Positions 13,155-19,446 of a DNA stretch of 64,000 nucleotides are shown piece after piece. How positions within the stretch are numbered: the stretch's first letter is position 1; each line of letters opens with the position of its first letter. This DNA comes from a virus (Duplodnaviria; Heunggongvirae; Uroviricota; Caudoviricetes): the IMG/VR virus record IMGVR_UViG_2585427970_000001; one strand, written 5' to 3'. The notes under the pieces are model-generated. The model was given only the letters and a program-made list of their open reading frames with translations. It searched no databases and was not told the origin of the DNA. A program made the translations under genes and the position numbers.

Positions 13155-13171
13155 ATTGCTCTAATGTATTG
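13155..13171 (+). promoter_or_regulatory. C1 operator-like site (14/17 to ATTGCTCTAATAAATTT) upstream of lpa
   Basis: ATTGCTCTAATGTATTG; the conserved ATTGCTCTAAT core is present. Confidence 0.45.
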
Positions 13172-15358: not shown

Positions 15359-15412
15359 TGAACCGCCCCGGGAATCCTGGAGACTAAACTTCCTGAGAAA
15401 GAGGTAAACAGG

Positions 15413-15739
15413 ATGACTAAAAATACTCGTTTTTCCCCCGAAGTCCGTCAACGGGCAGTCCGTATGGTTCTGGAAAGTCAGAGCGAATATGACTCACAAT
15501 GGGCGACAATTTGTTCCATTGCTCCAAAGATTGGCTGTACGCCGGAGACTCTGCGTGTCTGGGTTCGCCAGCATGAGCGGGATACCGGGGGCGGTGATGG
15601 AGGGCTCACCACCGCTGAACGTCAGCGTCTGAAAGAGCTGGAACGTGAAAATCGTGAACTGCGCCGCAGTAACGATATCCTTCGCCAGGCTTCCGCTTAT
15701 TTTGCGAAGGCGGAGTTCGACCGCCTCTGGAAAAAGTGA
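15413..15739 (+). CDS. IS3-family transposase OrfA (HTH)
   Basis: 108 aa, [23 protein letters not shown]...; leucine-zipper-like C-terminus. Confidence 0.9.
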
Positions 15740-16626
15740 TGCCACTGCTGGATAAGCTGCGTAAGCTGTACGGGGTCGGACCGGTATGCAGTGAACTACA
15801 TATTGCCCCGTCAACGTATTACCACTGTCAGCAACAGCGACATCATCCGGATAAACGCAGTGCCCGTGCGCAGCGCGATGACTGGCTGAAGAAAGAGATA
15901 CAGCGCGTATACGATGAAAATCACAAGGTATACGGTGTGCGTAAAGTCTGGCGTCAGTTGTTACGGGAAGGTATCAGAGTGGCCAGATGCACTGTGGCAC
16001 GTCTCATGGCGGTTATGGGACTTGCCGGTGTTCTCCGGGGTAAAAAGGTCCGTACGACCATCAGCCGGAAAGCCGTTGCCGCAGGCGACCGCGTAAACCG
16101 TCAGTTCGTGGCAGAACGACCTGACCAGCTGTGGGTGGCTGATTTTACTTACGTCAGCACATGGCGGGGCTTCGTCTATGTGGCGTTCATCATTGATGTG
16201 TTTGCCGGATACATCGTGGGGTGGCGGGTCTCATCGTCCATGGAAACGACATTCGTGCTGGATGCACTGGAGCAGGCGTTATGGGCCCGTCGACCGTCCG
16301 GCACGGTCCATCACAGTGATAAAGGTTCTCAGTATGTATCGCTGGCCTACACACAGCGGCTTAAGGAAGCCGGATTACTGGCATCAACAGGAAGTACAGG
16401 CGACTCGTATGACAACGCGATGGCGGAGAGCATCAATGGTCTTTACAAAGCGGAGGTAATACACCGTAAGAGCTGGAAAAACCGTGCAGAAGTGGAACTG
16501 GCCACACTCACGTGGGTGGACTGGTATAACAATCGACGATTGCTGGAAAGGCTGGGCCATACTCCTCCGGCAGAAGCAGAAAAAGCTTATTATGCTTCCA
16601 TCGGAAACGATGATCTGGCAGCCTGA
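15736..16626 (+). CDS. IS3-family transposase OrfB (DDE catalytic domain), expressed by -1 frameshift as OrfAB
   Basis: 296 aa with an integrase-type core (...[10 protein letters not shown]...[15 protein letters not shown]...); overlaps orfA in the -1 frame. Confidence 0.9.
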
Positions 16627-16668
16627 GTTCACAGATAAAACACTCTCCAGGAAACCCGGGGCGGTTCA

Positions 16669-17770
16669 TACTGGTAAAGGTGTATGGACTGTAGTACCGA
16701 AGGGCTTTCGTCTGGGAAGTGAAGAAGCTCTCGCCGGTGAACACGCAGATCATCTTCTGTATATTATCGATGAAGCCTCCGGTGTCAGTGATAGAGCTTT
16801 CGGTATCATCACCGGTGCTCTTACCGGACAGGATAACCGCATCTTATTACTGTCACAGCCTACACGCCCAAGCGGCTATTTCTACGATACTCACCATAAA
16901 CTGGCCAAGCGTCCTGGTAACCCTGATGGCGTTTATACGGCGATCACGCTTAACAGTGAGGAATCACCGCTGGTAACGCCAGCATTTATCAAAATGAAGC
17001 TGGCGGAGTACGGCGGGCGCGATAACCCTATGTACATGATTAAGGTACGCGGCCTATTCCCTAAATCACAGGATGGCTTCCTTCTTGGACGTGATGAGGT
17101 TGAACGTGCAACGCGGCGGAAAGTCAAGATTGCCAAAGGATGGGGCTGGCTTGCATGTGTGGACGTTGCTGGTGGTACGGGAAGGGATAAGTCCGTTATC
17201 AATATCATGATGGTGTCCGGCCAGAGAAATAAACGCCGTGTAATCAACTATCGAATGCTGGAATACACAGACGTTACAGAAACGCAGCTTGCCGCCAAAA
17301 TTTTCGCAGAATGTAATCCTGAGCGATTCCCAAATATCACCATAGCGATAGACGGCGATGGGCTGGGTAAAGCAACAGCGGATCTGATGTACGAGTATTA
17401 TGGTATTACCGTACAGCGTATACGCTGGGGTAAAAAGATGCATAGCCGTGAAGATAAGAGCCTGTACTTTGATAAACGTGCTTATGCCAACGTTCAAGCC
17501 GCAGAGGCCGTAAAATCTGGTCGTATGAGACTGGATAAGGGTAATGAAACTATTGAGGAAGCGTCGAAAATCCCTGTAGGGATTAACTCCGCAGGTCAAT
17601 GGAAGGTGATGAGTAAGGAGGATATGAAGAAAAAACTCAACCTGCACTCACCAGACCATTGGGATACATATTGTTTCGCTATGCTGGCGGATTATGTTCC
17701 CCAGGACGAAGTGCTTAGCGTCGAAGACGAAGCGCAGGTTGATGAAGCTCTTGCATGGCTTAATGAATGA
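16669..17770 (+). pseudogene. pacB: pacB, 3' fragment
   Basis: After removing the IS and one TAC copy the frame reads through continuously (...FYEVT|[12 protein letters not shown]...); the two parts sum to about 496 aa. Confidence 0.85.
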
Positions 17771-17773
17771 ATA

Positions 17774-17790
17774 TTTGCTCTAATAAATTG
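17774..17790 (+). promoter_or_regulatory. C1 operator-like site (15/17) upstream of the icd-ant module
   Basis: TTTGCTCTAATAAATTG versus consensus ATTGCTCTAATAAATTT. Confidence 0.55.
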
Positions 17791-17799
17791 TGTTTTTTA

Positions 17800-17945
17800 A
17801 CTACCGATGTTACATTGAACCTGACCTCTTGCGCCTTGAGGCATTTTCGGTTTATGCTTATCAGGCACCTCAGTAAAACGGGTGCCGGGATTGGCCTCCC
17901 GCTTAAGTCTAAGGCGATACAGACGCCGCTCGCGTCTTTTTTTTG
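17800..17945 (+). ncRNA. Candidate small regulatory RNA (c4-like antisense RNA region) ending in a strong intrinsic terminator
   Basis: No protein-coding signal; terminator GACGC-CGCTC-GCGTC plus T8 at 17921-17945; contains GTCTAAGG, also present in the icd leader, and a stretch partly complementary to the icd RBS. Confidence 0.3.
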
Positions 17946-18109
17946 TATCGGCGTACACGCACACCTCTACAATGGTGGGCTGTATGGGGCTACCTTCGGG
18001 TAGGCTGGTTACCTTGGACGCCAGTAAGGCCAACTCCGTACAGTCCACCGCCAGCAAGATTGGTCTCTTCTGCGGTGGTTACATACCAACGTCTAAGGAG
18101 GCTGCCAAT

Positions 18110-18331
18110 ATGGCTACTATCCCTACCCCAACTCATCCTGAATTTATCTGGCGCTTTTACTCCTGCCAAAAACGTCACTATCACTTCGTTATTGCACCGA
18201 CAGAAGATGAGGCACGTTCTCAGCTTCCTGACGCCCCATGTATTTTCTCTGCCCGTTTTTCCACTGATTCACGCAATTCTCTCAGTTACTGGTGCCTCCC
18301 TGTTAACGCTTCTGCTCAGGAGGGACTATGA
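18110..18331 (+). CDS. Icd-like small protein (host cell-division inhibitor family)
   Basis: Strong SD (AAGGAGG) 7 nt upstream; motif FIWRF...VIAPTEDEARSQL...FSARF resembles Icd-like proteins; stop overlaps the ant start. Confidence 0.5.
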   Translation: MATIPTPTHPEFIWRFYSCQKRHYHFVIAPTEDEARSQLPDAPCIFSARFSTDSRNSLSYWCLPVNASAQEGL

Positions 18332-19446
18332 GAACATCGTTAGTTACCCGTGAAGAGATGATCGAGGCAATTGAACAGCACACTGCCTGTATCAGTACCA
18401 GGGATATACCAGGCGTTATTGCCAACTACTTCATGATCACCAAACAACTTTACCGGAGAAAGGACAAGAACGCGGTTCACCGTATCCTGTTGTCTGATAT
18501 CCGCGAATACCTGCTCGAACAGGGTCATCTGAATTACGCAACCGTCGCAGCCGAATCACGCAAGGAGGCACACAGAATGAAAGCAACTAACGTTAAATCA
18601 GAAAAAATTCATGCACCTTCAGTTCAGGAATCGGAGCTGGTGGTTGTTCAGAATCAGTCTGATGAAATTCCCGTTCTGGAATGGCAGGGAGTGCGTGTAG
18701 TGACAACCGAGACTCTTGCTAGAGGGTATGGGACAGAAACAATCCGTATTCGCCAAAATCATCATGAGAACAAAGTACGCTTTGTTGAAGGGAAGCACTT
18801 TTTCAAAGTTGAAGGAGAATCATTGCGCGAGTTGAAGCACAGAGTAGCTTTAAACTACTCTGTAAAAATTGCTCGCAATGTTCGCTCACTCACCCTCTGG
18901 ACAGAACGCGGCGCAGCCCGCCACGCTAAAATGCTCGAAACCGATCAGGCATGGGCATTCTTTGAAAAACTGGAAGACAGCTACTTCCGGCAAAAAGAAC
19001 AGCAACCGGTTGCAATCCCCCAGACGCTTCCAGAAGCTCTGCGCCTGGCTGCCGAACTGGCTGAACAAAAGCAGCTTCTGGAACAGAAAGCCCACCAGCT
19101 AAATCAGCAGCTGGTGGCCGCCGCTCCTAAAGTCGATTTTGCCGACCGGGTATCAGTAGCTAAAGGGATCCTGATTGGGAATTTTGCAAAGGTTGTTGGA
19201 CTTAAGCAAAACGCGCTGTTTGCCTGGTTACGGGAGAACGGCATCCTGATAGCGTCCGGTGGACGTAAAAATGTGCCGTTCCAGCAGTACATCAATGCGG
19301 GGTATTTCACGGTGAAAGAAGTGGTGCTGGATGATGAAGATGGCTACCAGATACGGTTGACGCCTCAATTAACGGGTAAAGGCCAGCAGTGGTTGACGCG
19401 TAAACTGCTCGATGCTGGCTTGTTAAAACCGGTGGCGGCTGAATAA
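18328..19446 (+). CDS. Antirepressor-like protein (ORF6N/KilA-N type domain plus C-terminal KilAC-type domain)
   Basis: 372 aa; ...IPVLEWQGVRVVTTETLARGYG...FFKVEGESLRELK... and C-terminal ...VAKGILIGNFAKVVGLKQNALFAWLRENGIL...; the true start could be the internal Met at 18577. Confidence 0.6.
   Translation: MRTSLVTREEMIEAIEQHTACISTRDIPGVIANYFMITKQLYRRKDKNAVHRILLSDIREYLLEQGHLNYATVAAESRKEAHRMKATNVKSEKIHAPSVQESELVVVQNQSDEIPVLEWQGVRVVTTETLARGYGTETIRIRQNHHENKVRFVEGKHFFKVEGESLRELKHRVALNYSVKIARNVRSLTLWTERGAARHAKMLETDQAWAFFEKLEDSYFRQKEQQPVAIPQTLPEALRLAAELAEQKQLLEQKAHQLNQQLVAAAPKVDFADRVSVAKGILIGNFAKVVGLKQNALFAWLRENGILIASGGRKNVPFQQYINAGYFTVKEVVLDDEDGYQIRLTPQLTGKGQQWLTRKLLDAGLLKPVAAE

Follow-up and report, generated by a model that had tools for sequence, protein, structure and literature searches.

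An IsrK-type a1b1 leader RNA ahead of C4 and icd-ant in a second immI-type module of a P1-like phage-plasmid, and its likely role as a competitor for C4

The DNA considered here, hereafter called the window, is the 64,000-nucleotide (nt) Caudoviricetes virus record IMGVR_UViG_2585427970_000001, and all coordinates refer to this whole stretch. Upstream of its icd-ant operon, which encodes an Icd-like cell-division inhibitor and an anti-repressor, lies a non-coding region that a preliminary description had proposed to be an antisense-type small RNA repressing icd. We consider it likely that positions 17865-17944 are instead the IsrK-type (a1b1) leader of a second immI-type module in a P1-like phage-plasmid, and a probable competitor for C4, the antisense RNA encoded immediately downstream. 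The element is an a1/b1 leader by its family identity, its anatomy, its synteny and the three-way co-variation of its sites. The locus looks functional and is ordinary for a system already known; it is unannotated here and has a distinct specificity.

The family identity comes from an Rfam covariance-model scan of the whole window against the curated gathering scores, supplemented by one more permissive scan. Three matches exceeded the curated thresholds, namely an IS3-type frameshift pseudoknot, C4 and isrK. The isrK model (RF01394) matches 17865-17942 over its full length, model positions 1-77 of 77, with 60.0 bits against a gathering score of 50 (E = 2.6e-12), and the sole C4 match in the window, at 17968-18055, lies between this RNA and icd, its gene starting 25 nt downstream of the isrK match. 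The segment 17850-17945, for which a C4-type covariance search had been suggested, thus gives no C4 match and is recognized by isrK instead. In the permissive scan, a sub-threshold match to c4-a1b1 (RF03163, targets of C4 antisense RNA) covers the same two hairpins as isrK; elsewhere this second model reaches 51.0 bits in P1 and 50.1 bits in both phi315 and Stx2_EH0505. IsrK presumably binds Hfq, as the name of its Rfam family has it. The features of the leader and of the region before it, all on the plus strand, are the following:

17774-17790, plus strand: C1-repressor operator-like site TTTGCTCTAATAAATTG, counterpart of P1 Op51/Oc4
17788-17816, plus strand: putative P51a-like promoter, TTGTGT-17 nt-TACATT with TG at 17808-17809, proposed by alignment to P1 P2c4/P51a
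17829-17858, plus strand: putative P51b-like promoter, TTGCGC-18 nt-TATGCT, with a start at about 17864-17865
17865-17944, plus strand: IsrK-type / a1b1 leader RNA of ~80 nt (Rfam isrK, compensatory changes, fold)
17865-17885, plus strand: hairpin 1 (predicted fold, compensatory pairs)
17886-17901, plus strand: hairpin 2, with a1 in its loop (predicted fold, conserved stem)
17891-17897, plus strand: a1 site UUGGCCU (hairpin-2 loop), the complement of C4 a'
17907-17914, plus strand: b1 site GUCUAAGG, in the single-stranded linker, complementary to the C4 b' loop with one U.G pair
17921-17944, plus strand: Rho-independent terminator, with stem AGACGC (17921-17926), loop CGCTC (17927-17931) and stem GCGTCT (17932-17937)

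The predicted fold of the 80-nt RNA presents two 5' hairpins, an unpaired linker and the 3' Rho-independent terminator. Structural support for this RNA derives from co-variation and not from folding energy: all six pairs of hairpin 1 (6/6) show compensatory double changes among relatives, and the stem of hairpin 2 is conserved and displays the variable a1 loop. MAFFT alignments of the element put hairpin 1 and the terminator out of register, so that RNAalifold recovered hairpins 1 and 2 only, and the terminator was therefore analysed sequence by sequence. As had been described from the window itself, GACGC-CGCTC-GCGTC plus T8 is present, within 1-2 nt of its first placement; the T8 run occupies 17937-17944, a terminator scan recovered the signal independently, and the same hairpin closes the fold of the 80-nt RNA. 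A GC-rich hairpin of 5-6 base pairs followed by U6-U9 comes after b1 in all lambdoid, P1-like-second-module and APSE lineages, built on at least four different stems (AGACGC, ACCGC, CCACG and CACGC), and its equivalent in the canonical P1 group is weak or ambiguous. The proposal that a small, terminated non-coding RNA is made here is judged very probable.

For the region upstream, we infer a promoter and a transcription start from their counterparts in relatives. A sigma-70-type promoter occurs in every lineage, with the -10 hexamer ending 4-6 nt before hairpin 1, including TTGACT-17-TATATT in Stx phages, TTGATT-17-TACACT in SfV and TTGACC-17-TATAGT for P51b of P1, and even a divergent variant (L031) retains TTGCGT-18-TATCCT. 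A consensus promoter scan of the window did not detect the P51a-like promoter. The operator-like site at 17774-17790 has two mismatches to the consensus ATTGCTCTAATAAATTT and aligns with the annotated Oc4 of P1. It is one of seven C1-operator-like sites in the window, where 0.4 would be expected by chance; the other six, at 13155, 20425, 20889, 20972, 37022 and 42208, differ from ATTGCTCTAATAAATTT by 1-3 mismatches, and the set is consistent with a P1-type C1 regulon.

What the leader carries becomes clear when it is read together with C4 and the leader of icd, whose features are as follows:

17968-18055, plus strand: C4 antisense RNA gene (Rfam RF01695, 75.9 bits against a gathering score of 45)
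18012-18019, plus strand: b' of C4, CCUUGGAC (as DNA, CCTTGGAC), in the loop of the second hairpin
18027-18033, plus strand: a' of C4, AGGCCAA, in an unpaired linker
18060-18066, plus strand: a2 target site UUGGUCU in the icd leader, pairing with a' through one G.U pair
18091-18098 (feature to 18101), plus strand: b2 target site GUCUAAGG, overlapping the icd Shine-Dalgarno sequence AAGGAGG at 18095-18101
18110-18331, plus strand: icd, 73 amino acids, Icd-like cell-division inhibitor (NCBIfam NF033153, 49.8 bits; 80% identical to P1 Icd)
18328-19446, plus strand: ant, 372-amino-acid anti-repressor (Pfam ORF6N and ANT/KilAC domains)

C4 alone folds at -41.6 kcal/mol (z = -3.53) into an outer stem and two hairpins. 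The recurrence of GTCTAAGG in the icd leader, reported in the preliminary description, holds: the two copies stand at 17907-17914 and 18091-18098, on the same strand and 184 nt apart, and neither strand has another in the 64 kb. This count alone is not significant, since at least two matches arose in 27 of 100 shuffles; each copy is preceded by GATTGG[C/T]CTC, found at 17889-17898 and 18058-18067 and nowhere else in the window. We judge the repeated GTCTAAGG to be the functional b1/b2 pair, and TGGCCTCC comprises a1 and the 3' side of the a1 stem. The predicted duplexes with C4 amount to -10.3 kcal/mol for a' with a1, -7.7 for a' with a2, -12.4 for b' with b1 and -13.9 for b' with b2. The pairing of a1 with a' is stronger than that of a2 because a2 contains a G.U pair and a1 is perfect, which would suit a competitor role for the leader RNA. 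The C to U change that distinguishes a2 (UUGGUCU) from a1 (UUGGCCU) is seen in the window's specificity type only.

The leader RNA has the same sense as the icd leader and carries copies of the C4 target sites, not complements of them. It is in all likelihood not the antisense RNA first proposed and would be expected to bind C4 rather than the icd leader. The comparison with the logic of P1 C4, which accompanied that proposal, was sound for the locus and reversed in the roles, for the genuine C4 is the RNA of 17968-18055 and the candidate bears a1 and b1.

To place the window among its relatives, modules were drawn from 80 viral contigs found through Icd, from a phage collection and from E. 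coli genomes; a scan of genome contigs with Icd gave 3 loci and added little. The full architecture is present in 40 of 41 distinct icd-upstream regions from the viral contigs, the remaining one being a deletion, and an isrK match above the gathering score lies 19-45 nt upstream of every C4 match (18/18, in 17 diverse phage loci). In the deletion variant (L055, IMGVR_UViG_2609459791_000005) the icd ribosome-binding site, with b2 kept, directly adjoins the middle part of pacB; the isrK-like RNA, C4 and a2 are missing, and icd-ant would there escape C4 control.

Whole-RNA duplex energies, computed with RNAduplex and dinucleotide shuffles, discriminated no pairing (z from -0.1 to -1.4), and the pairing was therefore evaluated at the level of the sites, cognate against non-cognate. 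The panel comprised 24 modules, from P1, P7, D6, SJ46, Stx phages, SfV, phiP27, a Salmonella phage, Enterobacter phage Tyrion and others, with 10 a' variants and 16 b' loops in 20 combinations; one search procedure served for every pairing of loci, and partners were permuted at random 5000 times. The mean energies were:

a' with a1: cognate -8.2, non-cognate -1.9 kcal/mol; cognate best in 24 of 24
b' with b1: cognate -11.4, non-cognate -4.4 kcal/mol; cognate best in 24 of 24
a' with a2: cognate -8.4, non-cognate -4.4 kcal/mol; cognate best in 17 of 24
b' with b2: cognate -13.0, non-cognate -5.1 kcal/mol; cognate best in 23 of 24

None of the 5000 permutations reached the observed mean duplex energies, and APSE-3, from Hamiltonella, obeys the pairing rule when checked by eye. 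Given this perfect cognate pairing, the same selection for pairing with C4 acts on the sites of the leader RNA and on the targets at the icd ribosome-binding site. Among close relatives, which combine a = GGCC, GAGAC or GGAAC with b = GTCT, GTCA or GCAA, all three copies of each site always change together.

Modules that are otherwise near-identical (L003, L030, L039, L044, L088, L089 and others) show a and b reassorting independently, for instance GAGAC/GGAAC with GTCA/GCAA, and Stx2_112991 and PA2 differ in a only. Such reassortment suggests that recombination takes place inside the C4 gene or that coordinated triple substitutions have occurred repeatedly. Enterobacteria phage PPyecE_EH1910 (L091) holds two complete isrK-C4 modules in tandem, at 48-236 and 704-892 and ~650 nt apart, one with a GUCGCAG and b GUCAACGG and the other with a UUGGCGU and b GUUAUCGG, each before its own downstream open reading frame (ORF).

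Experimental knowledge of such an element comes from the Salmonella prophage Gifsy-1, where IsrK is a 77-nt RNA with a leaky terminator, read-through past it yields the anti-repressor mRNA together with a processed stable RNA, STnc1160, and the short IsrK supplied in trans turns on anti-repressor translation (PMC4825925, Hershko-Shalev et al. 2016). Both IsrK and STnc1160 are highly transcribed in Gifsy-1 lysogens under all conditions tested (PMC7067206). The compensatory mutants of that study, G28A/C162U and G31A/C159U (PMC4825925), fall on the sites described above: G28 and G31 lie in the hairpin-2 a1 loop UUGGCGU, and the two C's, C159 and C162, belong to a' ACGCCAA, so the published mutants tested a1-a' pairing. 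This mapping was made from the sequence in the S7 figure, where a 1-nt numbering offset in the machine-read text brings all four positions to the right base. Gifsy-1 has matching b1/b'/b2 sites as well (TCACCG/CGGTGA). The short RNA, the terminator read-through, the a1-a' pairing and the trans-activation of the anti-repressor have all been shown experimentally in this homologue (PMC4825925), and the effect to be expected of the window's RNA on icd and ant is, by homology with it, de-repression and not the repression first suggested.

The window shares with Gifsy-1 the three-hairpin layout ending in a Rho-independent terminator and, on a single strand, the order promoter, IsrK, ~25 nt, C4-like stable RNA (STnc1160 in Gifsy-1), leader and anti-repressor. 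The two differ in that Gifsy-1 is an integrated lambdoid prophage and the window element a P1-like plasmid prophage, in that the place between C4 and ant is taken by an Icd gene in the window and by the 'orf45' frame in Gifsy-1, and in specificity, a and b being UUGGCCU and GUCUAAGG in the window, UUGGCGU and UCACCG in Gifsy-1.

The second comparison is with the immI operon of P1 and P7, whose a1/b1 sites and C4 RNA were reportedly described by Citron and Schuster in 1990. In P1, C4 is known to block the icd ribosome-binding site through a2 and b2, and ant by coupling, as the annotation used here and, reportedly, the work of Citron and Schuster (1990) and Biere et al. (1992) establish. The reference was the annotation of GenBank AF234172, with Oc4/Op51, P51a, P51b, 'putative' a1 and b1, c4, a2, b2, icd and ant, to which the window aligns feature by feature. 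The sites compare as follows:

a1: P1 TTGACAG; window TTGGCCT (17891-17897)
a2: P1 TTGACAG; window TTGGTCT (18060-18066)
a': P1 CTGTCAA; window AGGCCAA (18027-18033)
b1/b2: P1 GTTAGTG; window GTCTAAGG (17907-17914 and 18091-18098)
b': P1 CACTAAC; window CCTTGGAC (18012-18019)

As in P1 and P7, a C1 operator, two promoters, a1, b1, c4, a2, b2, icd and ant follow in order; as in P1, a' and b' are complementary to both pairs of sites, b2 overlaps the icd Shine-Dalgarno sequence, and the ant start codon overlaps the icd stop in an ATGA (18328-18331 in the window). Unlike P1 immI, the window's module is an additional one elsewhere in the genome, between pacB and c1; its nucleotide similarity to P1 is too low for megablast, its terminator after b1 is much clearer, and its anti-repressor is an ORF6N and KilAC protein, not annotated as an Ant1/Ant2 pair.

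Two further systems invite comparison. In phage P4, with its seqA / CI RNA / seqC arrangement, a processed leader RNA likewise pairs with duplicated sites upstream and downstream of its own gene, and for the Gifsy-1 authors IsrK is a structural homologue of SeqA (PMC4825925). Pairing in P4 leads to premature transcription termination, whereas the documented effect in P1 is a translational block at the ribosome-binding site, and the likeness was drawn from the description of the P4 system. The prophage anti-small RNAs, or RNA sponges, AgvB and AsxR of enterohaemorrhagic E. coli act on the host core small RNAs GcvB and FnrS (PMC12197685). They resemble the leader RNA as mRNA target mimics that titrate a regulatory RNA; the window's RNA would differ in targeting an antisense RNA of the phage itself, derived from the same transcript, so the likeness is one of analogy, without homology.

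Taken together, these comparisons suggest the following course of events. Transcription would start at about 17865, and the nascent RNA would form hairpin 1, hairpin 2 with a1 in its loop, the single-stranded b1 and the terminator. Transcripts that stop there would give the ~80-nt small RNA, and those that read through would give the C4 precursor and the icd-ant mRNA. C4 would repress icd at its ribosome-binding site, where a' would pair with a2 and b' with b2, and would repress ant through translational coupling. In cis, a1 and b1 could pair with a' and b' within the unprocessed read-through transcript, as they do in the predicted fold of the full leader; in trans, the short RNA could act as a decoy for C4, a function that we infer for this locus. 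Either route would set the amount of free C4 available to silence Icd and Ant.

Several points weigh against this reading. The c4-a1b1 model scores the window at 20.5 bits (17852-17905), below its gathering score of 46.7, which is also a departure from P1 immI. The isolated 80-nt RNA folds no better than its shuffles (z = -0.66). The P51b-like promoter keeps 7 of 12 consensus positions, is therefore weak, and was missed by the promoter scan. Co-variation cannot tell a role in cis from a role in trans. The Gifsy-1 authors explain their data by the small ORF orf45 and alternative mRNA structures, not by a C4-type repressor, and co-expression of STnc1160 with IsrK gave no relief of toxicity (PMC4825925). 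Finally, expression as a ~77-nt RNA and activation in trans are known from Gifsy-1 only.

The first alternative is that a1 and b1 act within the read-through transcript alone, holding a' and b' of unprocessed C4 in a long helix; they would there guide folding and RNase P processing, or silence the nascent mRNA, the terminator being a simple attenuator and the short RNA a by-product. The minimum-free-energy fold of the full leader, 17865-18125 (-101.2 kcal/mol, z = -3.5), does pair the a1/b1 segment with a' and b' in cis, the corresponding 'structure A' has been demonstrated in Gifsy-1 (PMC4825925), and in the P1 group a1 and b1 co-vary with C4 even though the terminator is weak or ambiguous. 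Against an exclusively cis role stand the activity of the short Gifsy-1 IsrK in trans, which an a1-loop mutant loses (PMC4825925), and the retention of a strong hairpin with U6-U9 in all lineages outside the P1 group, which suggests that the terminated product matters. We hold this alternative to be unlikely, if worth serious attention.

A second alternative makes the leader a C4-responsive attenuator in the manner of P4 CI/seqA. C4 bound to b1 would free the 5' arm of the terminator from an alternative hairpin, GGCG:CGCC, formed on the plus strand by 17913-17916 with 17924-17927, its CGCC overlapping that arm; the consequence would be more termination at 17944 and negative feedback on c4-icd-ant transcription. 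All non-P1 lineages keep the GGCG that immediately follows b1, and the P1 group has a compensated version (TGCGG/CCGCA). In many lineages the alternative hairpin ranks first among the folds without the terminator; it is found in APSE-3 as well, and in phiv142, L039 and the P1 group it is at least as good as the terminator; the P4 analogy was moreover raised by the Gifsy-1 authors themselves (PMC4825925). In the window, however, the terminator, at -8.5 kcal/mol, is favoured by 2.4 kcal/mol over the alternative, at -6.1; the latter was not recovered in Stx2_112991, PPyecE or phiP27, and the idea is a sequence-based one. We regard it as rather improbable.

The preliminary description itself held that the small RNA pairs directly with the icd ribosome-binding region and represses icd, which now appears very improbable. 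The partial complementarity of TGGCCTCCCGCTTAAG to that region comes down to two 6-nt runs in the window, GCCTCC/GGAGGC and ATTGGC/GCCAAT. The predicted duplex of the whole RNA with the icd leader, at -35.5 kcal/mol, is at chance level, the shuffle mean being -33.8 (z = -0.37), and among 23 modules no complement to the icd Shine-Dalgarno region is conserved, the longest Watson-Crick runs being 4-6 nt in non-homologous places. Where the window reads GGCCUCCC / GGCCTCCC, its closest relatives, of the RCS47 type, read GAGACCCC or GGAACCCC; GTCTAAGG is identical to the leader sequence, not complementary to it, and a bona fide C4 lies between both sites. The idea of GCCTCC/GGAGGC as an anti-Shine-Dalgarno pairing was tested across relatives and rejected.

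A protein-coding reading of the region, through an ORF at 17767-18003 (78 amino acids), a minus-strand ORF at 17797-18057 (86 amino acids) or an 'ash family' frame running from 17972 into icd, is scarcely credible: RefSeq/PGAP does place an 'ash family protein' pseudogene over C4, at the equivalent of 17984-18085 (2414-2515 of L107, NZ_CP127299.1), the translation of 17882-18109 reaches 26.6 bits against the Pfam Phage_ASH cut-off of 26, and a tagged product has been obtained from Gifsy-1 orf45 in the same place (PMC4825925), but the first two ORFs have no Pfam or NCBIfam match, stop codons interrupt the frame from the C4 AUG in 12 of 23 lineages, nearest relatives included, these stops come and go with the a/b specificity sequence, and the nucleotide changes track RNA pairing. 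The frame through C4 ('ash'/orf45-like) was accordingly rejected, as it is not conserved.

Public annotation (RefSeq) carries no RNA genes at this locus. The Phage_ASH family may have been built partly on translated C4/CI-type RNA genes. Long annotated coding sequences also cross both RNA genes, isrK-like and C4, and extend into the gene that follows in SfV (orf37 'immunity region', L090 1145-1981) and in L092, L093, L094 and L095; the labels that these coding sequences bear are 'immunity region', 'antirepressor', 'transcriptional regulator' and 'hypothetical protein'.

Beyond the window, we put forward tentatively, with somewhat less than even confidence, a wider proposal: IsrK-type RNAs, the c4-a1b1 motif and the 'putative' a1/b1 of P1 may be one and the same element, a terminated leader RNA serving as a specificity-matched decoy (an anti-antisense RNA) for the C4-type immunity RNA of the same transcript. 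The a and b modules would reassort freely and so generate orthogonal specificities, allowing two non-cross-reacting switches per plasmid, and the short RNA would set the threshold of induction, possibly together with C4-dependent attenuation. In the APSE-3 record isrK and C4 are annotated next to each other; its authors treat the two as unrelated (PMC7313666), as does a 2025 review (PMC12197685), and Rfam keeps isrK outside the C4 clan. A statement that IsrK carries a1/b1 sites was not found in the searchable literature.

The genomic context agrees with the designation of the module as a second one. In canonical P1, c1 directly follows pacB, and the operator-to-ant module is therefore an insertion between these two genes; the last 69 nt of pacB were the only part of the query that matched P1 and P7. 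In the window, c1 lies among the flanking genes on the opposite strand, and the identity of C1 was confirmed. The inserted module is common to RCS47, JL22 and vB_EcoM-673R5, and that of pTZ20_1P and RCS47 had been noted at gene level by Venturini et al. (PMC6906374). RCS47, JL22 and 673R5 also retain the canonical immI in its usual place, and D6 has two icd-linked modules; with a second module beside the canonical immI, such elements therefore carry two C4 modules. The window itself has one C4 module only, according to the Rfam scan. Among 5426 complete E. coli genomes the module was matched in 390, and 131 of these cover at least 80% of the query. Plasmid pAPEC201602 of E. coli APEC20/16 (NZ_CP127299.1) has a module identical to that of the window.

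Two observations concern neighbouring sequences. An insertion sequence of the IS3 family, ~1.3 kb long (15361-16668), interrupts pacB, the gene for the large terminase subunit; it contains the Rfam ALIL pseudoknot (15694-15810) and ORFs at 15413-15739 and 15736-16626, and its junctions, 15360 and 16669 with a 5-nt overlap, were set by mapping an intact relative (L107) onto the window. With pacB split in this way, the phage is probably defective for DNA packaging. In the Stx2a-converting phage Stx2_EH0505 (L099), the anti-repressor region is followed, at 1437-1515, by a match to sRNA-Xcc1 (RF02221) that runs off the end of the locus and scores 68.5 bits, above the gathering score of 53.

The anti-repressor switch decides the quiescence of P1-like plasmid prophages, and many such plasmids carry resistance genes. 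Read correctly, the locus defines a second, orthogonal C4 specificity in these plasmids and ties the IsrK of Salmonella to the classical a1/b1 sites of P1, the function of which was never settled. The 20 specificity combinations form a natural panel, which could serve as a source of orthogonal triples of RNA regulator, target and decoy.

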